Assembly (NCBI GenBank): GCA_964016885.1
Contig: OZ024741.1
Span: 22,258,001-22,322,000, forward strand
DNA length: 64,000 nt
Direction: 5' to 3'
Origin: Eledone cirrhosa
Lineage: Eukaryota
Shown: piece by piece, positions 770-58,940 of the stretch
How the letters are laid out: each line of letters opens with the position of its first letter
Numbering within the stretch: the stretch's first letter is position 1
Program-made: the position numbers and the translations under genes
The notes under the pieces: generated by a model
The model's input: the letters and a program-made list of their open reading frames with translations, nothing else
Database searches by the model: none
What the model was told of the DNA's origin: nothing

Positions 770-3547
770 TCTGTGATGGGGTTTTCAGTATAACTCGCTA
801 CAACTTGTTTCGTAAAGACCGCATTAATCGTGGTGGTGGTTGTGTAATGGTCTATGTTCGGTCAAATTTGTCGGCAATTCCTTGTGTTGATTTGAACCAA
901 TCACAGCAGGAAGTATTTTTCTGCGATATACGTATGACCATGTCAACACTGCTACTTGGAGTCGTTTACCGTCCCCCAAATTACCATCAGGACACTCAAC
1001 TTTGTGATATCCTCAGAGTTGCTGCCAGGAAAACAGCCACTTATGTTTTCATTGCAGGAGATTTCAATCACCCTGAGATTGACTGGAAACCTTTCGTTGG
1101 CCACCAAGTGCAAATGACTTCCTTGAGCTAATGCTGGACTCGAATTGGTCCCAAGTAGTCACCTCCCCAACAAGAGGTGACAACACTTTGGATCTAATCT
1201 TCACCACTACTCCTGAAACGGTCATTAGTGTTACTGCTGAGGAACCTTTAGGTGACTCTGATCATGCTATGATCATTGCCAGTCTATCCCTCATAGGCAG
1301 TAACAAGAACCACAACAATCTTCAAACTGCTCACTTTGACTGGAATAAAGCAGACTGGAACTGTTACTGCACCGAGTTGCAATGTCCAAACTGGCTTGAG
1401 TTCTACGACTCTGGAGATGTCAACACTGTACACCAGAACATCCTGAGCTCAATATGGACAGCATGTGCAGCATCGGTGCCATGTAAGCAGAAAAAACATC
1501 CCAAAAGTGCAATTTGGGAGACTGCAGCAGTCAGAAAAGAACGTTGTAATGAAAAGAACGTTGTAATGCTGAATGTGAGTACAAACTCCATAAATCAGAT
1601 ATCAATAGGAAGAGGCGAAATAAATCATCCAACCATCTCAAACAGGTGACAAAAAAGGCAGTGCTTCAATTTGAGCAGCATATAGCAACCAACCCTGACA
1701 GTAAGGTGTTCTGGAAGTATGTTCACTCAAAGCAGAGGCCTCACTCTCCAGTTGGTCCTCTTCACAATCCCCACACAAGCCAGGTTACTGACGACCCCAA
1801 GGAATGCGCAGAGCTCATTGCTGAATGCTATGCAGGCATTTTCACTATTGAAGACCAGAGTGTACCATCTCCACCACCTATGACACCGGATTCTATTACA
1901 ACAATGAAATTTACACCTGCAATGCTGCGATGTCACCTTAAAAATAAACGCAACCATGCCTCTTCTGGTCTTGATGGTGTTACGTACCTGCTTCTCAAAT
2001 GTGGTGGGTACTTCCTTCTGCACCAGCTATCACGCTTCTTCCAATTCTGTCTAAACAACGGTGCTACTCCAGAACAGTGGAAAACTGCCAGTGTCATTCC
2101 TCTGTTCAAAAAGGGTGACTGCACATCACCTGTGAACTATCGTGCAGTCAGTCTGACTAGCTGCATTGCCAAACTGATGGAATACTGTGTCAGAGAAACA
2201 CTTTGGAACTTCTGGAACTCGCAATTTGTATTTATCCCTAACTCCAGCTGCTGTGATCAACTTATCGAGTTTCTTGAAGACATCACCCGGATCACTGATG
2301 GTGGCTCATGGGTGGATGTTGTTTACCTTGATTTTGCTAAAGCTTTCAGTTCTGTGCCACACAAAAGGCTTATGGAAAAACTCTCTGCAATGGGTGTGAA
2401 GGATGACCTTTTTAACTGGTTGAAGTCCTTCATTCTCAGTCGAAGAGAAGTAGTCACGGTTCTGGGACAGCATTCCTCACCATATGAGATGTCATCTGGT
2501 GTACCACAGGGATCTGTTCTTGGTCCCCTTTTGTTTGTGGCATATATTAATGACATAGATGCCAACTTAAAGAATGCCACAGTACTGAAATATGCTGATG
2601 ACATCAAGCTGTACCTTAAGATAAAAAGGACAGATCCTGAACACTATAGATCTTGCCTGCAATCTGACCTGGACACAATGCAACAATGGATCACAGACTG
2701 GCAACTCAAGCTAGCTGTGGACAAGTGCACCACCATGCATTTTGGGAGTAAAAACCCAGTGTCCACATACTCCCTCCACAATATTAATATCAAGAAGTCT
2801 TCTTGTGAACGTGACCTGGGCATTACGGTCAGCAGCGATTTGCGTTGGACGAAGCACGTCTCTAAAATTGTCAAGAAGGCCGAGGGTGTCTTAGCATCAC
2901 CCAGCAAGACCTTTGTCAGCCGCTCTCCAGCTATCTATTTAAAGCTGTACATAGCTATGGTGCGGCCACACTTAGAATTTGCATCACCAGTCTGGAACCC
3001 CTATCCTGCTCAGAACATTGACCGCCTGGAAACTGTTCAGAGACGTGCAACCAAGCGAATACCCTCCATCTCTGAATGCCTTGCTTCCCTGGGCATGGAT
3101 ACATTGAAGCTCCAACGTCTGGCAACTGACTTGGTAAACACCCACAAGATTATTAACTATCTTGCCAACAACAACCCTGAGTACCTTTTTGATTTCATGT
3201 GTCTAACACACGTGGGCATACCTACAAAGTCAGAAACAGCACAGCTCCCATGACTTTCGGAAACATTTTTTCACGCTCAGAGTTGCTGAAGCATGGAACA
3301 AACTCCCTGCTTCAGTTGTTAGCTGTTGAGACACTGCATCCTTTAAAACCTCCATGCTTCCTGAGATTCGCCAACACTACACCTGATATTCCCCCTCCAT
3401 ACACATACACACATGTATACCATGACTCATACACTATTCACTTCCCTGACATTTGTATATTATTCTATGTACTATACATGCACCTTTGACAAGTTGTAGT
3501 GCACCTGAGCACTTTACACAATAATTTCATTATTATTATTATTATTA
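770..3547 (+). mobile_element. CR1-type LINE, 5'-truncated and frameshifted ORF2 (APE + RT) with 3'UTR and (TAT)n tail
   Basis: APE motifs RKDR..GGG, YRPP, GDFN, PTR..LDL, SDH; RT motifs YLDFAKAF, GVPQGSVLGP, YADD; tail cacctgagcac...tattattatt. Confidence 0.93.
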
Positions 3548-11914: not shown

Positions 11915-13093
11915 TCAATTCCGTGAAGGAAACACTTTTAGTTTTCCTGCATCACTTAGTTCATTCCTAGTTTCATTCTTTTTAGAATTTGAAGACAAAA
12001 CTTTAGGTTTCCAATATTTTTTCTGTTTAATTTTTGAGATAACAGTTTTTAGCTTACTGGTTTCATTCTTTTTAAACATTGAAGAAAAAGCCTTGGGTTT
12101 CCACTTATTTTTCTGTCCAAATTTTGAAAGCGCATGTTGTATTTTCCCAGTTTCATTCTTTTTTAAATTTGAAGAAAAAACCCTAGGTTTCCATGGAAGT
12201 TTCTTGTTAAACAGTAAAGGAACTGCTTCCTGTATTTTCCCAGTTTCATTCTTTTTAATCTTTGAAGAAAAAACCTTGATTTTCCATGGAATTTTCTTGT
12301 TAGGAACTGCTTCCTGTATTTTCCCAGTTTTATTCTTTTTAATCTTTGAAGAAAAAACCTTGATTTTCCATGGAATTTTCTTGTTAGGAACTGCTTCCTG
12401 TATTTTCCCAGTTTTATTCTTTTTAATCTTTGAAGAAAAAACCTTGATTTTCCATGGAATTTTCTTGTTAGGAACTGCTTCCTGTATTTTCCCAGTTTTA
12501 TTCTTTTTAATCTTTGAAGAAAAAACCTTGTTAGACTTTGGAGCAAATGCTTCCTGTATTTTCCCAGTTTTATTCTGTGTAAATTTTAAGGAATATTTTA
12601 TCTTGTTTTTGTTTAATATTATTGTGTTTGATTTATATTTATTTTGTATCCGATAAATAGATGGTTTAATGGATGTTTTCAAGAAAAACGTTTTATATTT
12701 CAGTTTTTCTAAATTTACACCAGACGTGATATTTATTTTACCGTCTGCCCAAGTTTTTTGTTTCCCATGTTTCGGGACGTTTTTTAAGGGTTTCGTCTGT
12801 GTTGCTTGTATGTTATATTTCCGTTGTATTTCATTCCTTTTACGTAGATAATTTCGGTTAGGTTTAGGTTTAGAGAAATATTTCACTGACGGGATTTTAA
12901 TTTTGTCTTTGTGATTTTTTCCACTGGAAAATTTATACGTTCGTTTGAATTCATTTTTCGGCATATATTCGCTTGCAAAGAAACCGTATGTCATCACTAA
13001 GCTTACAAGAACAACTGAGAAAAGTACAAGCAAATAAAAAGTTTTAATGCTTGTAATACTACAACATGCCTTTTTCTTTTGACGTTTTAACAT
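11915..13093 (-). CDS. Lys-rich type II membrane protein (392 aa) with 28-aa tandem repeats; resembles a glycosyltransferase cytoplasmic tail, anchor and stem exon
   Basis: Short basic N-tail, hydrophobic anchor FYLLVLFSVVLVSLVMTYGFF, about 8 repeats (KIKKNKTGKIQEAVPNKKIPWKIKVFSS). 1.18 kb ORF in very AT-rich DNA. Candidate 5'UTR intron 13099-13271 (GTAAGT...pyrimidine tract..TAAG) ends 5 nt before the ATG. Confidence 0.7.
   Translation of the reverse strand: MLKRQKKKACCSITSIKTFYLLVLFSVVLVSLVMTYGFFASEYMPKNEFKRTYKFSSGKNHKDKIKIPSVKYFSKPKPNRNYLRKRNEIQRKYNIQATQTKPLKNVPKHGKQKTWADGKINITSGVNLEKLKYKTFFLKTSIKPSIYRIQNKYKSNTIILNKNKIKYSLKFTQNKTGKIQEAFAPKSNKVFSSKIKKNKTGKIQEAVPNKKIPWKIKVFSSKIKKNKTGKIQEAVPNKKIPWKIKVFSSKIKKNKTGKIQEAVPNKKIPWKIKVFSSKIKKNETGKIQEAVPLLFNKKLPWKPRVFSSNLKKNETGKIQHALSKFGQKNKWKPKAFSSMFKKNETSKLKTVISKIKQKKYWKPKVLSSNSKKNETRNELSDAGKLKVFPSRN
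12231..12575. repeat. 84-bp in-frame coding tandem repeat
   Basis: tgtattttcccagtt recurs at 12231, 12315, 12399 and 12483, with degenerate copies on both sides. Confidence 0.9.
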
Positions 13094-13987
13094 TTTCGCT
13101 TATAATTATCAAGGAAAAAAGTTGAAAAGTTGAACGTGAACATATCAAAATAATCCTTATTTAGCGAAGTATATACATATATACACACAAACACAAATAT
13201 ATATATGAGTGTGTGTATCTATGTATGTACTAAATAAATCAAATGAGGATAAAGCAGGTTGATTTACTTACATGTGTATAAAGATAAAATAACGTCCTAT
13301 TTACAGGTAATATGAAGTGTGCTTAAATAAACACTATACACAACACATATATATAAGTATATATATGACCAGCTTGAACAATGGGGAGAGAAGAAAAGAA
13401 CAGGTATATATATATATATATATATATAGGACAATGTGAATATATATATCGACTGCTGGATCGACTAGGTTTTTGTTTGAGAGAATAGATCACTGAACAA
13501 TATAAACAGCAGGGTGTACGTGTTTTGATTCAATTTTGTTATAAACGAAATCTCCTAATTTCTTTTATAAAATCACACACGCACACACACATATATATAT
13601 ATATACACATATGTATATGTGTATATATGTGTGTGTGTGTGTTTTGATTCAATTTTGTTATAAATGGAATTAAGAAATTTCGTTTATAAAATCACTCACA
13701 CACATATATATGTATGTATCTGTGTGTGAGTGTATATATACATACATTAATACATTCATACACACACACACATATATATAAATATGTATGTATCTGTGTG
13801 TGTATATATATATATATACACATACATATGTATTATATATGTATGTATACATACATCCATACAAATACATACATGTATGTGTGTATATGTACACACACAC
13901 ACACACATATATAATTAGTTATAACAGTAACATATACAGGTACTTAAGTTTCGTTGGGTTATACACCCCAACTCATTTCAGTCTATT

Positions 13988-14422: not shown

Positions 14423-14554
14423 GTGAGGTTTTTTTTTACAAAATGAAAAATAACCGAGGTGTCCTACACGAGTGAAAGTATAAAGAAAAAGAGATGAAAT
14501 CGAAAATGCAACTGGAGTCTTATTTTTTTAAAAAATATATATATTTATTTGGTT

Positions 14555-14592
14555 CCTTTACCGGTTTCGCAGTTCTTCTGCTTTTCAAAAGG
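14555..14592 (-). ncRNA. Mirror copy of the minimal hammerhead motif
   Basis: Exact reverse complement of 14776-14813. Confidence 0.75.
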
Positions 14593-14775
14593 TGAGTTGA
14601 GATGGAGGGTCTGTGGTTTTTCTCACATCTGGTTGGTCTCTGAATGTTACTTGTTTTATATGGAAAAAGTGGCTCGAAATGCCAGGTTTTTCGAGCCACT
14701 TTTTCCATATAAAACAAGTAACATTCAGAGACCAACCAGATGTGAGAAAAACCACAGACCCTCCATCTCAACTCA

Positions 14776-14813
14776 CCTTTTGAAAAGCAGAAGAACTGCG
14801 AAACCGGTAAAGG
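14776..14813 (+). ncRNA. Minimal type I hammerhead ribozyme motif, U3-A8 variant
   Basis: CCTT [TTGAAAA] GCAG-AAGAA-CTGC [GAA] ACCGGT [A] AAGG: stem I CCTT/AAGG, stem II GCAG/CTGC, palindromic stem III, GUA site. Confidence 0.75.
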
Positions 14814-14882
14814 AACCAAATAAATATATATATTTTTTTTAAAAATAAGACTCCAGTTGCATTTTCGATTTCATCTCTTTTT

Positions 14883-14953
<71 letters not shown>

Positions 14954-15107: not shown

Positions 15108-15139
15108 ATAAACGTTCTGCGTGGTTGCATATGGGTTAC

Positions 15140-15403
15140 ATATGAATAAAGTGGTCCTTCATCAGTGATCTTTCAACCATCATCGTATTCCTTCGCTTTA
15201 AAGACCATATACCTGCGGTTCTTCCTCACTTTTCGTTGCTTCACCATCTTTGTTTGTTTACACTCTCGCTGTTCCCTTTATTTACGTGTCCCAACGACTT
15301 TCTTTAGCCGTTGCTCGCACCAACCGGAGGTATATGGTCTTTAAAGCGAAGGAATACCGATGATGGTTGGAAGATCACTGATGAAGGACCACTTTATTCA
15401 TAT
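15140..15403. repeat. Inverted repeat, arms about 81 bp, spacer about 100 bp
   Basis: 15140-15220 vs 15322-15403 with few differences; flanked by (TA)n. Confidence 0.92.
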
Positions 15404-15556
15404 ATATATATATAACCCGTTTTACGTGTGTTGTGTTGAAGCAAATAACTATGTGTATACTCTGGGAATGTATCTTACATTGCCCATGAAGTACGCTGAG
15501 ATACAACCGGTACTGGCATTGATAAATAAGCTGGGTCCGTCAACTCCTTATTATAT

Positions 15557-17660
15557 ATATTGTTATACTTTGGGATGGTCATGTTGCCAATAAGAAACAC
15601 ACGCACCAGTTGCTTTCACTCCAATTTATTATAAATTAAAAAATTCTTTTTTTTTTAATTTATAAATTTCCAGTTGGTTGGTTGGTTCCACAACCGGACG
15701 GTTGTTCATATATTGTCAAAGTTCTTTCGTCACACATTCTGTGACCTCTTCAGTGACTGGGATTCTTTTCTTTGTTTTGTGCCTCTCCTTTGTTCTGTCC
15801 TACGCCATCTTGTCTGTGTGTGTGTTGTGTGCTTAGTTTGCGCATGTGTTACATCCGGGTGTCTGTGTGCGTTTTTATTTGTTTATTTTATTTGTTTCTT
15901 TACATGTTACTGGTTGGTTGTTTGTTCTATGTGTGTGTGTTTTCATTTTGTCCTTAATTGTAAGTTGTGATGTTACTATTCCATTCATGTTTTCTATTTA
16001 ATTTTGGTTGGAGTTTATTTATGTTTATTGCCTCTGTGATTTGTCTAAACATTGCGTCTTTTCTGTGTGTAGATTTTATTTTTATTTCTATGTTCTCTAA
16101 TTTGCCCTTATGTTCTATTTTAGCATGTTGGTGGAGTACTGATGATTATTTTCTATCTTGAAGCTCTCGCCAGTGTTCATTAACCGTTCTCCTATACTAC
16201 GAGCTGTCTCACCTATGTACACTATATTCTTATCTTTACATTGTCCTTCAGTACATCTTATGCTACATACTATGTTTCTAGTTTTACAGTTAATATGGGG
16301 GCTTAGTTTACAGATTAAGCATTTCTTATCTATACAGGGAGGTCTTTGAAAAGGGTATGTATTACTAATAAGTGTTTTTATGGAGGTACCTGGTCTTTCT
16401 ACTATCTTAATATTAAGTTTAATTTTATCTAGGGCCCTTCTAAATTTGTAAGCTAATTCACTTCTAGGGGTTGTATTGATGAACATTACACTCTGGTATA
16501 TATTGCTATAATACCATGAGTTTATTCTATTAACCTTATTCCTAGTTCTTTCTATTCTATTCCAAAATTTGCTCCTATACAAGGGGCAGGTCCCATTTGT
16601 ATCATTATTTACCATTTTTTCCCATTTGGTTCTGGCTCCTCTATATACTCTGATTTTATCTCTCTGATTGTAACCAGAGAACTGCATACGGTGGATGAAG
16701 TGTTGTATGTGTCTCTCTAGTTCTTTGGGGTTGCACATGCGGGACACGTTTCTCATCACCCGTACTAAATCCGCAATCAGTATGTTGATTTTGGTGTGAT
16801 CCGAAACAGTTGAGTTTCGGTGGATCAAATATTTGGAAGTCTTGGGTTTGGCATAATGGGAATGGGCGATTTGTTTTTTGTTATTAATGGTTTCTAATCA
16901 GATCTCTGTGTCTAGTACAGGTAATCGATGGTTGGGGTGTTTGCTTGGGTAGTCTATAGTAACTCTAATACTCTGGTGGATGGAGTTAGCTATTTGCTGG
17001 ATGCTTTCCATGGTGTTTTTCTCTAATTGCTGACTGTTCTCTAGTGGAGGTGTTTTTACTACGATGTTTATATCATCAACGTAGCGAGAGTACATTATCA
17101 GGGTTAAGAGGTTGCTGTCTTCTAATTGTTCTTTAAGTTTATTGTCCCACCATACCATGAATAGGTTAGCTATGTCACCTGCAATGCTAACACCACTGGC
17201 TGCTCCCTCCTCTTGGGCATATTTCCATTAAATTTGAACATATATTCCTTAAGGGTTAGTTTTATACTGGTCCCCACCGCATGTGAAATCATTTTCTTTA
17301 GTTCATCGTGGTTTTCGGGGGTTCGTATGGCTCTGGTCCACCCATTCCATCTTTCTGTGTGGGTTTTCTTGGCCATTGAGGTAATGGTAGGTGGTCTGCC
17401 TCTTACTAGTCTTGTGGTTCTAAGGTCATACGTATCTAGATAATAATTACTATAAGTAAGTTTAAGTAGGAGTCCCAGCTCACTGGTATCAATCCCACGG
17501 AATTCAACATTGCTCTCACTGATAGTTAGTTTCTAGCGTAATGCTCCGATCTTTCTCTCTTTCTGTAGACCACTGGGGTCTGTTGATAGTGGTGAATCTT
17601 TCACATAGCTTGTTCTGTAGTGGAGTGCTCCGATGTCTCTGTTGCTAAGGTGGGAAAATA
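15557..17660 (-). mobile_element. Decayed Penelope-like element (RT + Cys-rich linker + GIY-YIG; Neptune-like)
   Basis: RYVDD (16898-17158), LPVLD, CxxxxCxxC linker, NIV..C...YIGETARS, and frameshifted C-terminus RQITEA..LNRKHEW near 15980-16070. Confidence 0.9.
15715..15757 (-). ncRNA. Hammerhead ribozyme motif in the Penelope 3' pseudo-LTR
   Basis: GTCA [CTGAAGA]G GTCACA-GAATG-TGTGAC [GAA]A GAAC T T TGAC. One extra nt after the core; minimal stem III. Confidence 0.7.
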
Positions 17661-17797
17661 TAGGCTTTATATACCTGTCGCTTTCTGCCTCCCACCTTTA
17701 GGGGATAGCCCACGCATGAACCTGTTTACACCAAAAGGGTGATGACCTAGAATTTGACCTTTAGGTGTCACCCAAGGTTCAAGGCACGGACAGATTT

Positions 17798-17935
<138 letters not shown>

Positions 17936-18021
17936 ATATATATATCAATAGATAGATAGATAGACTTCGTTTTTGAATTTGTTTTGCAAGATTTCTTATC
18001 TGAAAAGGTATGTTGAAGCAT

Positions 18022-18174
18022 ATATTGTTATACTTTGGGAGGGTCATGCTGCCAATAAAAACACACGCACCTGATGGGTTTCTCTTCAATTTATTATAAC
18101 TGTCCAGCTGGTTGGTATAATAACCAGATGGTTGTTTATATATTGTCAAAGCTCTTTCGTCACACATTCTGTGA
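18022..18174 (-). repeat. Partial upstream pseudo-LTR of the Penelope-like element
   Basis: Diverged direct repeat of 15557-15744, ending inside hammerhead stem II where a SINE A fragment starts. Confidence 0.8.
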
Positions 18175-18323
18175 TTTGAACTCAGAACGTAAAGGGCCAT
18201 AACTCTATGTCACAAAGCATATTGGCCGACTCTCTACCGATACTACCAATAATATTCAACACAAACACGAACGTCAACAGATTTGCTAATGGAACAGACA
18301 TATTATACAAAGCATATAAATGA

Positions 18324-18700
18324 ATTTACAGTAGATAACATTACAGATGCTTAGATAACATTATAAATTGCTCGCGATTCTTTCAGAAAGATATATTCTT
18401 ATAACGTTGCAATATTAAAGAAAATGTAAAGGAAGGGGTGAACAACCGAGCCAACACCAGAGCAAAAGACAGCAACGGCGCAAGGAGTACTGGGCAACCT
18501 CTCTAATGATTTGTGAGGCAACCCAGCACACTCGCAGCGTTGCCTCGGGTGATGATGAGGCTAATGCGCTGGAACAACCAAGCGCCCTCGCGAGATTTGT
18601 CAGTTACTTCTATTAGGCGAGCCGCCAGTGAAGAGAGGAACCTCGCAGTCAGCGGCCCGACTCCCCCAAACGTCTGGAAAGCGACAGGCTGAAAAATGTA
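18324..18700 (-). mobile_element. CRE-like non-LTR retrotransposon 3' end
   Basis: Minus strand reads SREGAWLFQRISLIITRGNAASVLG*, the typical CRE endonuclease end, followed by a 3'UTR. Confidence 0.7.
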
Positions 18701-26342: not shown

Positions 26343-26751
26343 TTAATATGTTATTTTAAAATATAAAATGGTATAGTTTGTGTATGTCTCCATGTCTGTG
26401 TTTAGGTACTGTAACTTGAAAGTTTGATAAAAGAAGTGCAAGGAGACCAGAAAAAAAAAAAGTAGCAATTATATACGACTGACTAATAAATTGTAAGACA
26501 GTTAGAAACCTGACCCAAAACGTTGAGCTCTTTTGCCACATCAAAGAAAGGCCATCACACTACATTCTTTAAAGTGGTTGGTGTAGAGAAAGACATCTTT
26601 GTTATCGAAGGGGGTTGATTAGCAGAGTTGTTAGAGCAGTAATGGGTAACCTGAGGCCCGCAACTCTTTCTGAATGGCTCGCCTAAGTCATCTAAGTGAA
26701 ATCTTTCTGATTTTTTTACCCCAACTTTTCAGTCATAATTTATCTTTCTAA

Positions 26752-27110
26752 AATAAATTTACAGTAGAATAACATAACAAATGTTTTAAATATATACATA
26801 AATAACATTACAAATGCTTAGATAACATTATAAATTTCTCGCGATTCTTTCAGAAGGATATATTCTTTTAATGTTATAATATTAAAGAAAATGTAAAGGA
26901 AGGGGTGAACAACCGAACCAACACCAGAGCAAAAGGCAGCAACGCCAGCACTGGTTCGGTTGTTCACCCCTTCCTTTACATTTTCTTTAATATTGTAACA
27001 TTAAAAGAATATATCTTTCTGAAAGAATCGCGAGCAATTTATAATGTTACTAAGCATTTGTAATGTTATTTAAAACATATTTGTTATGTTATTCTACTGT
27101 AAATTTATTT
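26752..27110. repeat. Fold-back inverted repeat of a CRE-like 3'UTR (arms about 160 bp, spacer about 31 nt)
   Basis: 26752-26920 vs 26952-27110; homologous to 18324-18478. Confidence 0.93.
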
Positions 27111-28664
27111 ATATGGTTTGTATTTATCTTTCTATAATTTTTACGATCGAGGAAAACAACGTGTACGAATTCTGAAGAAACAAATCAAAACAACCTGAGT
27201 TACCGCCCCTTTTTCTAAATGTGGGCACAAATGTAAATAAGCGCTTGTGGTCCGCCTGATGATGAGCCATATCACATACGGGATTTGAACTCAGAATGGC
27301 AAGGGCCGTAACTCTATGCATCAAAGCATGGCGTCCGACCCTCTACCGATACTGCCAATCCACACGTATAGATAATAAATGTGTATATATATATGAGGAG
27401 GATGAGAAGAAAAAGGGAGAGGAGGAGAAAAAGAAGAATGACAACAACAACAATAACAAGTGGAAGTTTGTATGATTTTCATTTTATTTAAAATTAATTT
27501 TGATTTTGATTTGTTCTTCATGCAGCAAGAATTCTAGTGAATATAAAATCCAACATCTTTACATATTATATACATATATACAGATACGATTCAAGAGCAA
27601 AATATGATATCTATATTATTAAAATACTGTATTGGTATTTCAAAAGATCAAAAAAACAAAAAAAAACGAGAGGTTTATTATGTACTGTCAGGTCCCAAAT
27701 ACGAGGGTGGGTGGGAGTAGAATAAGTGGAGGGGTGGGGGAATTGGTAATTTTTTTAGGTTGTCCCTGTTGATTTTTTTAAAAACCAGAATTAGTTATTT
27801 AGTTTACATATTGAGACCCCAAACCATCCTATTTATTTTATAACATAAGGTATTTCTAGTAAGGTACTTTTTTGTCATGTATAATCTTAACTATAATAAA
27901 GAAAGGAGTGCGGGACTGCATCCAGAATATAATTTTTTATCCTGTTTGTAAAATAAGTTGGATTACTTTGAATAAACAATGAATGAATATTACATAATTT
28001 ATCTGCAAAATTTCATAGCTTTTGATTAAATATATTTTATTGCTTATTTAAAGATTCACTTCTTTAAAATTTTCAAATGTCAACACTTCCAGTTAGTGAT
28101 CACTTAAATAAACATTCATATATTTCCGTCACTAATTTTCTCCTAATGCAGTTTATATATAATCTCGTCTTTTTTAAAATGTATCATCGATTACGTTAAT
28201 TATTACGCAGTCTTCATTCAATTTCTGTGTATATTTTCAATTACGATTTTATTTGATGTATCATATCTACATGTATATATACTTGCATATAATATCAATA
28301 TACACACTACACATACTAGCAGAAAATCACCTGAAGGGTGGTTTTTCTGGTAGTGTTTTTAATGTCTAAAGAAAATTAATTGTGACAGAAATGCTACCAC
28401 TTAAAATAAAATTTCACTGGAGATAGATTAGCAAAATTTAATAAACGTGTGCGTGTGTGTGTGTGTGTGGGGGGGGGGGGGGTCCTGAAAATCAATAGGG
28501 GGTGGGGTGATTATTCAAGACCCGGGAGTAATCATTTATAAATTGTATTGATTTGAAGTCCAATTTTAGTTTTCTACTGAATTTTCATTCAAGTCCAAAT
28601 TTTAATTTCAGATTTTAAATATATGTATTTTAAGTTCCTGGTATATATATGTATGTATATATAA

Positions 28665-30031: not shown

Positions 30032-30124
30032 ATATATATTGGTTGTAACATAAATTCCCGCCGTTGTTATAAAACTTCTTAATAAAAAAAACGGCGGGAA
30101 TGTATGTTACAACCCAATATATAT
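30032..30124. repeat. Short inverted repeat (arms about 34 bp) within TA/CA microsatellite
   Basis: ggttgtaacataaattcccgccgtt vs aacggcgggaatgtatgttacaacc. Confidence 0.85.
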
Positions 30125-30990: not shown

Positions 30991-31570
30991 ATGTACAGTA
31001 CAGTAGTTAGTATTAGTGGCTCAGACATAGTGTATCTAGGACTACATTATCTAATGTACAGTACAGTAGTTAGTATTAGTGGCTCAGACATAGTGTATCT
31101 AGGACTACATTATCTAATGTACAGTACAGTAGTTAGTATTAGTGGCTCAGACATAGTGTATCTAGGACTACATTATCTAATGTACAGTACAGTAGTTAGT
31201 ATTAGTGGCTCAGACATAGTGTATCTAGGACTACATTATCTAATGTACAGTACAGTAGTTAGTATTAGTGGCTCAGACATAGTGTATCTAGGACTACATT
31301 ATCTAATGTACAGTACAGTAGTTAGTATTAGTGGCTTTCAGACATAGTGTATCTAGGACTACATTATCTAATGTACAGTACAGTAGTTAGTATTAGTGGC
31401 TATCAGACATAGTGTATCTAGGACTATATTATCTAATGTACAGTACAGTAGTTAGTATTAGTGGCTATCAGACATAGTGTATCTAGGACTATATTATCTA
31501 ATGTACAGTACAGTAGTTAGTATTAGTGGCTTTCAGACAGTGTATCTAGGACTACATTATCTAATGTACA
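30991..31570. repeat. 63-bp minisatellite, about 9 copies, flanked by direct repeats of about 220 bp
   Basis: Unit atgtacagtacagtagttagtattagtggctcagacatagtgtatctaggactacattatcta; flanks 30770-30991 and 31587-31793. Confidence 0.95.
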
Positions 31571-32268
31571 CTTCTTCTTATCATATCCACAAGAGTATCA
31601 GTTACAAAGCTTGGCTAAATGTGGTTCCGCCACAGCTGAACACATTGCTGTCCTTTCTCATTAAATTCTGCCAAGTCCAATACTGTGCAGGGGGAATATC
31701 AGGAGGTGCTGCATAGGCTGTGGTTTGATACTGCAGTCACACACACCGTCCCCATCTTTTAAATATCCTCATTTTGCCAGATTGGCTTTTGCACAACCAG
31801 CACCAGATCTTAATCTGTTGAGGCATTTCCACACTGCATAGTTTGTATCTGCTTCAGGGGGGGGGGGGGTAGTGGCTTGCTTATCTTTAGCTCAGGTAGC
31901 CAAGTAATACACTAATAAAACTTTCACACAGAAATTGTTCGACAGGATTCCATTTGTTAACAAGACCTTGTCCAGGACCCCACACCTAAACCAGCTTTGA
32001 CATTCCCAGAAAGCAATGGGTGTCCCATAATCAGATCTGCCCAACACATGTCAGGACAGCCCATCATCTCCATTGATGGAAAATGAAGACAGCCCGGCAT
32101 GAGACTGTGGGGAAACTGACAAGATAGTACTGTATGTTGTTCAGGATTGCTCACTCAGACGGAGGCAATAATGCTAATGCTGGAAATGATGCCTTAGTCT
32201 GGCTTGCTGGTCTCAACCTGCCTCTCTAACCATTGTGTATATGTCATACAAGAAAATTTGTTACCAAA

Positions 32269-32449: not shown

Positions 32450-32889
32450 GGAGAAACATTTGTTACCTTCATTTTCACTACTACAGACTTTTAACAAAGG
32501 ACCCACTGTATATATGTGTATATAAACGCACATATGTGTGTATATGTATACACATGTGTGTATGTGTATACATGTATGTGTGTATGTGTGTGTATCTGTA
32601 TTTCGGTTTATGTCTCATAACTTAACATTTCAAACAAAAATGTATCCTATAATATAAATACTGGGGTTGATATAACCGACTAAATCAAGGTGATGCCCCA
32701 GCATGGTTGCAGTCAAATGACTGAAACAAGTAAATATACAAATATACATATATATAAGCAAAGAGAGATATTTAATTTGTTGGTTATTCAACAAATTTAT
32801 TTATAACAGATTCAAAGCACTCTACAAGTTTTCTGGAGTATAATATCAATGATATTAATAAATGGAAACTATATTTATAAAACCATATT

Positions 32890-32950
32890 TATTTTATTAT
32901 ATATATTTCAAGGGTACCAACATTTTGGTACACTCTCATCAGATAAAATA
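32890..32950 (-). ncRNA. Mirror copy of the hammerhead motif
   Basis: Reverse complement of 33017-33077. Confidence 0.85.
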
Positions 32951-33016
32951 CAAACTGAACCTGAACCGATAAGGTCTGGTTTCTTGGATATGTCACCATT
33001 TATAAAACAAATTTTG

Positions 33017-33077
33017 TATTTTATCTGATGAGAGTGTACCAAAATGTTGGTACCCTTGAAATATATATAATAAAATA
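33017..33077 (+). ncRNA. Type I hammerhead ribozyme motif
   Basis: TATTTTAT [CTGATGA] GAGTGTACCAA-AATG-TTGGTACCCTT [GAA] ATATATAT [A] ATAAAATA: perfect 8-bp stem I, 10 of 11 pairs in stem II, palindromic stem III. Confidence 0.85.
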
Positions 33078-33802
33078 AATATGGTTTTATAAATATAGTT
33101 TCCATTTATTAATATCATTGATATTATACTCCAGAAAACCTGTAGAGTGCTTCGAATCTGTTATAAATAAATTTGTTGAATAACCAACAAATTAAATATC
33201 TCTCTTTGCTTATATATATGTATATATATACACACAAATGGAAGTTCAGTAAAATTGAAGTTGTGGCTGTGGCCAAGCTAATGATATACAATCAGGTATG
33301 TGCAGCAAAGCACTCGATAAGGTTGTGTCACCTTAGAGTAATAACATTTGTTAGAAAGCTTAACAAATTGAAGACTGCGACCGGTGAGCCAGCCACATGA
33401 ACCAAAGCAACATGAAATCCAACTCATGTAATTGACAAACCTGGACCATCTCATCGATATTATGCAATATCTCCGATAGTTTTCTATGAATATATATATA
33501 TGAACACATACACATACACGCACAAACATATATAAATACATATACACAATGGAGAGATGTTCAGATACTGAAAAGTAGGTTAGCGTGATAACTCATATGA
33601 TCTGAGCTGATGCAGTGAGAGAAAAACTTTTTTTTTTATATCAACTTTTTCAGTAGTGGCCAGATTGTTGTGAAAATTTAATGTAAAACTTAAGTAAAGA
33701 CTATAATTTTTAATGTGGTGCCATTTATAGTAATGTTTTGTACTTTTTAATGTCTTCTTAATGCTTTACAGGACATTAAGAGCTAATATATCTTAAATAT
33801 AA

Positions 33803-34059
33803 TTAATTAGAAAGTGAACAAGACAAAATATATTACTCCATTACCAAAGGTTTCTGGATCACAGACGATAATAATATATATGTCTGGATCGTTCGTCAGA
33901 TGTTATGGATAAAAGATATGAAATGAAATTTCATTTCATATCTTTTATCCATAACATCTCTATCTGACGAACGATCCAGACGTATATTATTATCGTCTGT
34001 GATCTAGAAACCTTTGGTAATCGAGTAGTTATATTTTGTGTTGTTCACTTTCTAATTAA
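33803..34059. repeat. Loopless fold-back palindrome centred at 33928/33929
   Basis: gaaatgaaa|tttcatttc centre; arms about 126-131 bp with several substitutions and a 6-nt indel. Confidence 0.95.
33958..34025 (+). ncRNA. Type I hammerhead ribozyme motif (somewhat decayed; mirror copy at about 33836-33903 on minus strand)
   Basis: CTCTAT [CTGACGA] AC GATC CAGACG-loop-CGTCTG T GATC TA [GAA]A CC-TTT-GG T [A] ATCGAG. Base of stem II is mismatched. Confidence 0.7.
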
Positions 34060-34271
34060 ATAGCTCTGTTCTATACATAGAGCACTCTTTTTTCCTTTGC
34101 TTTTCCTTTGGAATTATGTAGCACATATCTTAAATATATATCATTTTGAATAATAACCAAAAGAATGAGATGGTGAATACATGCAGCCGAAATGAGGTTC
34201 CTATGAAGTGTCTCTGAAATAACATTACTCGATAGGGTAATAGCTTGGAGATTAAGGAGTCACTCCTTATA

Positions 34272-41531: not shown

Positions 41532-41578
<47 letters not shown>

Positions 41579-42342
41579 AAAGTGTTCAAGACCCCGACGG
41601 CAGAGCTCAAGCCATTTCGACAGCCATTTCTGGACTGAGAGTCCAGAAATAGTCGTCGAAAAGGCTTGAGCTCTGCTGTCAGGTTCTTGAACATTTTCCT
41701 ATTACCCACTCTACTACCCAAAGTATTGAGTACTCTGGTGCGTTATGGTCCACCTGGTTCCTTACCACACTTCCTTCGTTATATATACATATATATATAT
41801 ATATACACACACCAGAGTGTATCTAGATTAAAATTGGTACAATATATCCCTGCATATTCTATATAAGAAGGAACTAGAAGGGTTGATGTCAAAAGGGGCA
41901 TCAGACTGTGAAACATTGCCTCAAAAAGTCCCATCCAACCAAATGCCAGCATGGAGAATTAGATGTAAAAACCAATGATGATGTGAGGCCTTTTTTTCTA
42001 CAAGTTATAATTAGGTGAAAAGATAGGTATCAAATATAGTTAAATCAGGAGAAATATGCACCAATAACAAGGTTTGCCTTCAAACGTTTTACTTCTTTAT
42101 GAAGGTGGCACTTAGTTTATGAGAAAGCCACATGTGGCCCTAAGACTGCATGTTCCTCATCTCTGGTCTAAAGCATATCTATCATTGTTTATGCTCTCTT
42201 ACAAAACCTCTCATATATTGTAACGTTAGTTACAAATTTCATATATGAAATGAAAAAATATATAAAATGGTGATGACTAAATTTAAAAAATTAAATGATT
42301 TATGAAGATGAAGCTAAAATAACATAAACAATCATATCTTAA

Positions 42343-51395: not shown

Positions 51396-51694
51396 ATATA
51401 ATGTGGAAAGTGATACAAAATGGACGATAAGATGATGGTAATGAAAAAGTTACCTGGTAATCTTTGTTTTTTTTTGTTTTTTGTTGTTGTTGTTTCTTTC
51501 ATCCTAATATTTCAGAACTGAAAATTCCCTTCTTCGGAGTATAAAGAACTCTCAGAGAAAAATTAGGATGAAAGAAACAACAGCAACAAAAACAAAAACA
51601 AAAGCCAAAGATTACCAGGTAACTAACTTTTTCGTTACCTCATCTTACCTTCCATTTTGCATTGTTTAGCCTTCTATCACTGTCCACATTATAT
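51396..51694. repeat. Older imperfect fold-back inverted repeat in a GALNT intron
   Basis: gttacctggtaatctttg vs caaagattaccaggtaac; tttctttcatcctaat vs attaggatgaaagaaa. Confidence 0.88.
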
Positions 51695-56636: not shown

Positions 56637-58940
56637 ATAATAATAATAATGAAATATTGTGTACAGTGCTCAGGTGCACTACAACTCATCAAAAAGTGTA
56701 TGTATAGTACATAGGGTAATGTACAAGCGTCAGGAAAATGAACAGTACATGAGTGATGATATACACATGTGTGCATGTGTATGGAAGGGGGACATCAGGT
56801 GTAGTTTTGGCGAATTTCAGGAAGCATGAGTGTTTTAAAGGATGCAGTGTCTCGACAGCTAACAACTGACGCAGGCAGTTTGTTCCATGCTTCAGCAACT
56901 CTGAGCGTGAAAAAATGTTTCCGAAAGTTATGGGAGCTGTGCTGTTTTCTGATTTTGTAGGCATGTGTGTTAGACACATGGAGATCAAAACGGTGCTCAG
57001 GGTTGTTGTTGGCGAGATGGTTAATAACTTTGTGGGTGTTTACCAAGTCCATTGCCAGACGTCGGGGCTTCAATGAATCCATGCCCAGGGAAGCAAGGCA
57101 TTCAGAGTATGGTAGGTGTCTGATGGAGGGTATGCCCTTGGTTGTACGTCTCTGAACAGTTTCTAGGAGGTCAATGTTCTGAGCAAGATAGGGGTTCCTG
57201 ACTGATGATGTGAATTCCAAGAGTGGTTGTACCATAGCTGTATACAGCTTTAAATAGATGGCTGGAGAGCGGCTAACAAAGGTCTTGCTGAGTGATGCCA
57301 AGACACCCTCGGCCTTCTTGACAATCTTAGAGACATGCTTTGTCCAACGCAAATCGCTGCTGACAGTAATGCCCAGGTCACGTTCACAAGAGGACTTCTT
57401 GATATCAGTGTTGTGGAGGGAGTATGTGGACGCTGGATTTTTCCTCCCAAAATGCATGGTGGTACACTTGTCCACAGCCAGCTTCAGTTGCCAGTCTGTG
57501 ATCCATTGCTGCATTGTGTCCAGGTCTGATTGTAGGAAAGAGTTGTAGATTTCAGGATCAGTCCTTTTGATTTCAAGGTACAGATTGATGTCATCTGCAT
57601 ATTTCAGTACCGTGGCATTCTTTAGGTTGGCATCTATGTCATTAATATATGCCACAAACAAAAGGGGACCACGAACAGATCCCTGTGGTACACCAGATGA
57701 CATCTCATATGGTGAAGAATGCTGTCCTAGAAGTGTGACTACCTCTTTTCGGCTGAGAATGAAGTATTTCAACCAGTTAAAAAGATCATCCCTCACACCC
57801 ATTGCAGAGAGTTTTGCCATAAGTCTTTTGTGTGGCACAGAATTAAAAGCCTTAGCGAAGTCAAGATAAACAACATCCACCCATGAGCCACTGTCAGTGA
57901 TCCGGGTAATGTCTTCAAGGAACTCGATAAGCTGATCACGGCAGCTGGAGTTAGGGATAAATCCAAACTGCGAGGGCCGGATGAGGCTGTGAGAGTTCCA
58001 GAAGTTCCAAAGTGTTTCTCTGACACAGGATTCCATCAGTTTGGCCATACAGCTAGTAAGACTGACTTGACGATAGTTGACAGGTGACGTGCGGTTGCCC
58101 TTTTTGAACAGGGGAATGACACTGGCAGTTTTCCACTGCTCCGGAGTAGCACCATTGTTGAGACAGTATTGAAAGAAGAAAGAAAGCTGGTGCAAAAGGA
58201 AGTACCCGCCACATTTGAGAAGCAGGTATGTAACACCATCAAGACCAGGGGAGGCATAGTTGCACTTATTCTTAAGGTGACGTCGCAACATTGCAGGTGT
58301 AAATTCCATAGTTGTTATGGAATTTGATGTTAGAGATGGTGGAGATGGTACATTCTGGTTTTCAACAGTAAAAATGCTTGCATAGCACTCAGCAATGAGT
58401 TCTGCGCATTCTTTGGGATCATCAGTGATCTGGCTTGTGTGGGAATTGCGAAGAGGACCAACTAGAGAGTGAGGTCTCTGCTTTGAATGAACATATTTCC
58501 AGAACACCTTACTGTCAGGATTGGTTGCTATGCGCTGTTCAAATTCAAGCACTGCCTTTTTTGTCGCTTGAGGTGGTTGGAAGAGTTATTCCACTTTTTT
58601 CTGTTGGCATCTGATTTATGCAGTTTATATTCTCGTTCAGCGTTCCAACGTTCTTTCCTGGCAAGTCGGACCACTGAAGTTTCCCAAATTGCACTTTTGG
58701 GGTGGGTTTTTTTCTGCTTACGTGGCACCGATGCTACACACGCTATCCATATTGAGTCCAGGATGCTCTGGAGTATAGTGTTACATCTCCAGAGTTATAG
58801 AACTCATACCAGTTTGGGCGCTGTAGCCCAGTGCAGTACAAGTTCCAATCTGCTTTCTTCCAATCAAAGCAAGCAGATTGGAGATGGTTCTGGTTTTTGT
58901 TGCTGCCCGCAAGAGCCAGATTGGCAATGATCATAGCATT
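56637..58940 (-). mobile_element. CR1-type LINE in GALNT intron with uninterrupted 585-aa RT ORF (56795-58552); APE part truncated and frameshifted
   Basis: QFGF, YLDFAKAF, GVPQGS, YADD, ERDLG, VRNPY, WNKLP; same family as 770-3547. Confidence 0.95.

Follow-up and report, generated by a model that had tools for sequence, protein, structure and literature searches.

A hammerhead-bearing palindrome in the genome of Eledone cirrhosa, probably two Penelope-like element 3′ ends inserted head to head

The 64,000-nucleotide stretch of Eledone cirrhosa DNA analysed here (the window) contains, at positions 32742-33225, a palindrome of 484 bp with two identical hammerhead ribozyme motifs, one per arm. 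A Penelope-like retrotransposon (PLE) probably left it behind as a dead-on-arrival insertion, in which two 3′ ends, 5′-truncated to unequal extents, are joined head to head within a TA microsatellite. The 213-bp inverted repeat proposed in the first-pass annotation proved real: 32742-32954 and 33013-33225 are complementary, without gaps, at 211 of 213 positions, and are separated by a 58-nt spacer (32955-33012). The outermost 15 bp on either side consist of TA-type microsatellite, which leaves non-repetitive arms of 198 bp, with 196 matching positions. The left TA-type run (32742-32756) is mirrored on the right, where the run occupies 33211-33230, and may be either target microsatellite or element terminus. 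The right arm (33013-33210, + strand) is read as the longer copy of an element 3′ end, pseudo-LTR-like and with the 3′ end outward, and the left arm (32757-32954, − strand) as a shorter one whose truncation point lies 12 nt upstream of the ribozyme core.

The two arm differences annotated earlier were found at 32814/33153 and 32827/33140; in the ribozyme sense the right copy has C and the left copy T at both, and one of the two lies at a CpG. The divergence is 0.94% (95% interval 0.11-3.4%). At a rate of 0.09 substitutions per 25 million years, taken from the available part of PMC13282606, this corresponds by hand calculation to about 1.3 million years (0.15-4.7), a rough figure that ignores copying errors, CpG decay and conversion. 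The palindrome had been called young or homogenised; young fits, and with both arms likely copied in a single event there is no need to postulate homogenisation. The element has a GC content of 23%, and both arms lack an ORF. In the PAc element an ORF begins inside the ribozyme; here this is not so, the two ATGs giving 16 and 8 codons (counted by hand). Close to the 3′ end of the right copy (33170-33193, +) a hairpin of 9 bp with an A/C-rich loop was obtained by fold prediction and, by analogy with the PAc element (PMC11167929, available text), could be a candidate reverse-transcription start signal. No clear target duplication or tail was seen at the insertion; the possible duplication is just a 9-nt TA direct repeat (32748/33222).

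The motif of the right arm is a type I hammerhead at 33017-33077 (+). It comprises an 8-bp stem Ia (33017-33024/33070-33077), the CUGAUGA box (33025-33031), stem II (33032-33057) with ten pairs in 11 positions, one U-C mismatch and a G·U as first pair, and the GAAA box (33058-33061). The cleavage triplet is AUA, and the cut is predicted after its 3′ nucleotide, A33069. The identical motif of the left arm lies at 32890-32950 (−), with its core at 32942 and the predicted cut after 32898. All core positions (C3 U4 G5 A6 N7 G8 A9, G12 A13 A14, A15.1-U16.1 and H17) are present in both arms. The core-flanking pairs are U-A in stem I, the G·U wobble in stem II and A-U in stem III, and stem I is open-ended; core positions and core-flanking pairs are what the inclusion criteria in the available text of PMC3088659 (Perreault criteria) address. 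The canonical core and the long stem II of the earlier description were therefore recovered, and its cut site stands as the one predicted from a type I motif. An origin of U11.1 by CpG decay was considered and is weakened, as natural PLE consensus motifs carry U11.1; the literature search for G10.1 with U11.1 returned no paper.

A strict descriptor with a threshold fitted after the fact matched the motif in the window and none of 150 block-wise dinucleotide shuffles, and two looser descriptors matched 2/150 and 3/150 shuffles against three matches in the real window. Chance occurrence of the hammerhead motif is excluded by these shuffles. Searches with Rfam gave no family at gathering score and no hammerhead family at E ≤ 10, only generic hairpins far below gathering. 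The Rfam models seem insensitive to such variants, since a window-wide scan at gathering score also missed a textbook minimal hammerhead at 15753. The exact 26-nt core-plus-stem II pattern had no match in GTDB genomes, as expected for a eukaryote repeat. The copies of the motif that were compared are two, and they are identical.

The spacer appears to belong to one arm. Positions 32998-33008 are perfectly complementary to 33084-33094, forming an 11-bp stem Ib (+) distal to an internal loop of 8 × 6 nt. This helix is available to the right copy only, as the left arm ends before its 5′ strand. Shuffled spacers attained an 11-bp helix in 18 of 5000 trials (mean 6.4 bp), and the real spacer in the opposite orientation gave 8 bp; the predicted pairing of stem Ib was 0.63-0.98 in seven of eight sequence contexts and 0.22 in the remaining one. 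Since the 11-bp pairing is with the right arm only, the spacer, at least its 3′ part, likely represents what natively precedes the + copy; the − copy would then be the shorter of the two, ending 12 nt before the core. The spacer begins with a 6-nt direct duplication that may be junction filler. The 8-bp stem I of the earlier description thus holds as stem Ia, and for the + copy it is incomplete, with a further 11 bp likely lying beyond the internal loop.

The stem III made of (AU)4 did not survive as a feature of the single molecule. The octamer at 33061-33068 (+) is self-complementary, as are 365 of the 6127 A..T octamers of the window; in the monomer it gives at most 2 bp with a 4-nt loop, at a pair probability of 0.00, and the 8 bp form only between two molecules, in a double hammerhead. 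In a model that omits tertiary and magnesium terms, the monomer ribozyme fold of the + copy lay 6.2-6.5 kcal/mol above the ensemble and that of the − copy 9.5 kcal/mol above it, and stem Ia had a pair probability of 0.06-0.26, with AU registers competing. The strand-exchanged double hammerhead of 32990-33110 came within 0.2 kcal/mol of the homodimer optimum in this tight construct, and was 5.5-11.3 kcal/mol above the dimer optimum in four longer contexts, values that are approximate because the flanks were folded separately. Taken together, the near-optimal tight construct and the weaker longer ones make dimer function plausible in these models. In the complete palindrome, forcing the ribozyme to form cost 82.9 kcal/mol for the whole + element, 68.6 kcal/mol for the + prefix that just completes the ribozyme, and 81.2 kcal/mol (minimum-energy) on the − strand. 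The penalty of about 80 kcal/mol arises because, by symmetry, the antisense arm is transcribed first on either strand, and the whole palindrome is predicted to stay uncleaved even if the ribozyme is sound.

The PLE-type origin implied earlier is supported by the layout of the insertion. Within the available text of the sources, PLE hammerheads occur in pairs 100-700 bp apart on opposite strands (PMC4209133), PLEs form inverted 5′-truncated copies and use (TA)n targets (PMC8557442), and head-to-head pseudo-LTRs of 181-218 bp have been described (PMC3846280). In agreement with this, the palindrome joins inverted, unequally 5′-truncated 3′ ends head to head, sits in a (TA)n target and has its hammerhead near the 3′ end, the distance from cut to end being 141-156 nt as compared with 164 nt in the ORF-bearing PLE of the window. 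An ORF linking reverse transcriptase (RT) to GIY-YIG was not found with the insertion, which, being ORF-less, is therefore at most a truncated or non-autonomous derivative. It is the layout that carries the assignment to PLEs, because neither a parent ORF nor another copy of the family was found in the window. This head-to-head layout is not specific to PLEs, since the 3′ end of a LINE-like element (26751-27110) and hammerhead-free palindromes of the window show it too.

The insertion may have arisen as follows. [quoted passage not shown] Neither copy would have been completed: synthesis of one would have ended 12 nt upstream of the core and that of the other up to 70 nt upstream of it, after which the two would have been joined. 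Each keeps the full core, and the right one also the 11-bp distal stem I, as read from the sequence. Two-ended priming is somewhat favoured over fold-back self-priming, a mechanism proposed from palindromes at inverted junctions (PMC3846280, available text); the junction of the present palindrome forms an imperfect hairpin only. Tandem transcripts of the parent are predicted to be cut slowly, as a double hammerhead formed through the (AU)4 palindrome. Dimer action in tandem transcripts has been described for PLE hammerheads in the accessible parts of PMC4209133 and PMC6765202, and slow cleavage would be expected because, of four triplets compared on purified RNA, AUA was cut most slowly (PMC1636495, as far as available). 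The hammerhead of PMC11167929, in the text available, needed the PLE protein for cleavage and was dispensable for insertion. At the palindrome, a read-through transcript would contain the antisense arm first and is predicted to zip into a 213-bp hairpin, so that the ribozyme would be silent there and the transcript exposed to double-stranded RNA editing or dicing instead.

The motif is filed as a type I hammerhead that would work like the dimer-type PLE motifs, and the insertion is putatively a PLE. When compared with the minimal PLE consensus, the palindromic 15.2-16.2 pair and loop III were present. The motif falls outside that consensus because two features are not found: the extra nucleotide after A9 is missing in the best register, and in place of the G10.1-C11.1 pair and short helix I there is a G·U at 10.1-11.1 and a helix I of at least 8 bp. 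The PLE pseudo-LTR hammerheads in the available part of PMC4209133 are alike in being type I, with a long helix II and a palindromic loop III that requires dimers, and in occurring as opposite-strand pairs 100-700 bp apart, mostly in ORF-less truncated copies. They differ in having the extra nucleotide and the G-C pair; the Schistosoma minimal motifs listed there have 7-8 pairs in helix II against ten here, and helix I is of 4-5 bp there against 8 bp plus the predicted 11-bp distal part here. The all-AU palindromic stem/loop III is shared with Penelope of Drosophila virilis and its relatives, with three AU units according to a PDF table with a displaced GAAA column (PMC4209133 supplement, in part), as is a bulge or mismatch within helix II (PMC4209133); the present motif has four AU units, A17 instead of C/U, and a far longer helix I.

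The Hydra-clade PLEs of PMC8557442 (available text), including Hydra-1_Obim of Octopus bimaculoides, resemble the insertion in their (TA)n targets and in a hammerhead near the 3′ end, although the palindrome is unlike Hydra-1_oBim in sequence. In the accessible part of the supplement of that paper, 17 of the 25 Hydra-clade motifs listed have U before GAA, 11/25 have A17 and 2/25 a G·U as first stem II pair; all 25 have C15.2-G16.2 or A15.2/C15.2 and a GU-H triplet, whereas U15.2-A16.2 and AUA are found here. Penelope-13_HM of the same supplement has an inverted truncated copy, with the ribozyme on both strands, as here. An 18-nt stem II probe had no match in the part of this supplement available, where line breaks could hide one. 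The texts available already record each of the following for PLEs: opposite-strand hammerheads, inverted truncated ends, (TA)n targets, a loop III that is an AU palindrome, and G·U as first pair. The unusual remainder of the motif is the long stem II combined with the distal stem Ib. No description of this octopod family was found in the literature covered, and closer relatives may stand in other papers or supplements; the accessible parts of PMC544870, PMC2837043, PMC6431247 and PMC8969392 held nothing decisive on the palindrome.

A decayed PLE is present in the window at 15555-18174 (−), with an RT, a CX4CxxC linker of Neptune/Nematis type, a GIY-YIG-like motif and direct pseudo-LTRs, the 5′ one of which is interrupted within stem II by a different repeat. 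Its RT matched Pfam RVT_1 at an E-value of 6.5e-4, below the cut-off, and the best protein match was from O. vulgaris (59%). Its hammerhead, with the core at 15753, is the textbook minimal form with the extra nucleotide and the G-C pair. This element was rejected as parent of the palindrome: no significant similarity was found, and the best local alignment to its 3′ region was matched by 8 of 200 shuffles. To judge from these sequences, this PLE, with its ORF, pseudo-LTRs and hammerhead, is of another family than the palindrome. In blastn of the element against the window, microsatellite was the only other hit at E ≤ 0.01, which bears out the earlier statement that no parent PLE ORF of the palindrome family is visible there. 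Comparison of the arm with nine other window regions gave the best result for 14479R, equalled by 3/200 shuffles and marginal after nine tests.

Inverted pairs are dense across the 64 kb. An unrelated second hammerhead palindrome lies 575 bp from the first at 33800-34062 (to 34124 with its tail). Its core is at 33964, with a GUA triplet, a predicted cut after 34019 and a Hydra-like stem III; it is spacer-free, with a perfect central palindrome, and a 6-nt deletion in the left arm removes the stem I strand there. [quoted passage not shown] A target duplication of 14 bp (33788/34125) borders it, and a tail of 62 nt extends on one side. The palindrome at 26751-27110 (within 26738-27134) has the same layout as the first, with a target duplication of 13 bp and 7 nt of junction filler. 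A third copy (18317-18477) matches the spacer, which is thereby shown to be upstream sequence native to one arm. The palindrome is preceded by an ORF end that, from its motif, looks like a restriction-like-endonuclease LINE; a Pfam search of this ORF end gave no match. This palindrome confirms the head-to-head layout model, and suggests that two-ended insertion extends beyond PLEs in the Eledone cirrhosa genome. The palindrome at 14479-14889 has 201-bp arms (199 matching) and a 9-nt spacer, is hammerhead-free and adjoins a TA run; the resemblance of its ends to those of the present element is marginal. Another at 15137-15406 has 85-bp arms that end shortly past a CUGAUGA half-core, with no GAAA box after it. 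Further short palindromes (13539-13689, 30032-30124, 41574-41702 and 51413-51662) lie mostly in or beside simple repeats.

Other explanations of the palindrome were weighed against a PLE insertion. The unit could be a non-LTR retrozyme of the non-autonomous kind, in which a hammerhead repeat devoid of ORFs propagates via circular RNA with the help of PLE enzymes, here in an inverted double insertion. The ORF-less, AT-rich arms and the weak helix III of a type I hammerhead are as in metazoan retrozymes (PMC7229834, available text), the extended stem I with its internal loop is closer to canonical type I motifs than to minimal PLE ones, and retrozymes are present in molluscs and thought to derive from pseudo-LTRs (available parts of PMC7229834 and bioRxiv 10.64898/2026.07.22.740005). 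However, the retrozymes of PMC7229834 are direct tandem repeats of about 300 bp that yield circular RNA, and the window holds one inverted pair and no direct tandem copy of the unit. The canonical motifs in the accessible text of PMC4209133 have a 4-bp helix II against the ten pairs here, and the defined 3′ end in a TA run is like that of PLEs. We regard a retrozyme as unlikely. Nearly the same low weight, if anything slightly less, is given to a single hammerhead copy duplicated later by fold-back repair or template switching, or to a MITE-like DNA element with a captured ribozyme. Several palindromes of the window are hammerhead-free, among them 14479-14889 with similar ends, and 15 bp of TA-type sequence are mirrored inside the arms; but this sequence is of low complexity, and the same element position is reached at both outer ends. 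Two neighbouring palindromes with 13-14-bp target duplications and one-sided 3′ extensions are, in addition, what a single retrotransposition event predicts.

It is very improbable that the palindrome is a read fold-back or an assembly artefact, even if nearly identical arms are what such an artefact would give. The two mismatches had been held to argue against it; alone they say little. The unique left and right flanks, which differ in sequence, and the non-palindromic spacer that belongs to one arm say more, as do the neighbouring palindromes, which diverge by 1-14% at aligned positions and some of which have target duplications. A fortuitous hammerhead in AT-rich DNA is the least credible of the four explanations. 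The 25% GC of the motif, the competing AU registers that leave stem Ia so weakly paired and the negative Rfam result would fit it, and are outweighed by the shuffle counts above and by the agreement of its position with two other hammerhead-bearing ends in the window.

A gene at 43246-63985 (−) encodes a GALNT11-like glycosyltransferase. Ten of its exons were identified, and their identity to Octopus sinensis ranges from about 40 to 90% depending on the exon; the top named match of an exon was to this species (84%). A location of the palindrome in a coding intron of this gene was rejected, as its exons, from 63985 to 43246 (−), end about 10 kb short of the element. A long 3′ UTR of this gene, or a UTR intron of another gene, may be the site. 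On the − strand at 11915-13099, an open frame of 394 codons encodes a hydrophobic segment at the N-terminus and repeats of 28 residues that are rich in lysine; it may be a first coding exon, and Pfam gave no match for it. A tandem array at 31000-31594 consists of mostly identical 63-65-bp units, and long RT-encoding open frames at 1553-3253 (+) and 56795-58585 (−) are presumably CR1/L2-like LINEs.

As a PLE insertion, which explains it best, the palindrome would be an unremarkable relic that adds to the hammerhead-bearing PLE ends already known. Its ribozyme nevertheless offers a small construct on which cleavage by dimers only, through a pure (AU)4 palindrome, could be tested, and the locus is a young example of a head-to-head junction, the origin of which may be two-ended or self-priming, as well as a likely source of long double-stranded RNA. 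There is, finally, a long-shot reading in which an ORF-less octopod family spreads as head-to-head hairpin units, the 11-position stem II and the bulged stem I of 8+11 bp of a variant hammerhead make a new tertiary contact, and the antisense arm acts as an off switch. It is equally doubtful that, under this reading, read-through transcripts would go to double-stranded RNA editing or dicing and transcripts started in the spacer alone would cleave. If true, this reading would be of greater consequence, as it would reveal a mobile RNA equipped with a lock on its own ribozyme.
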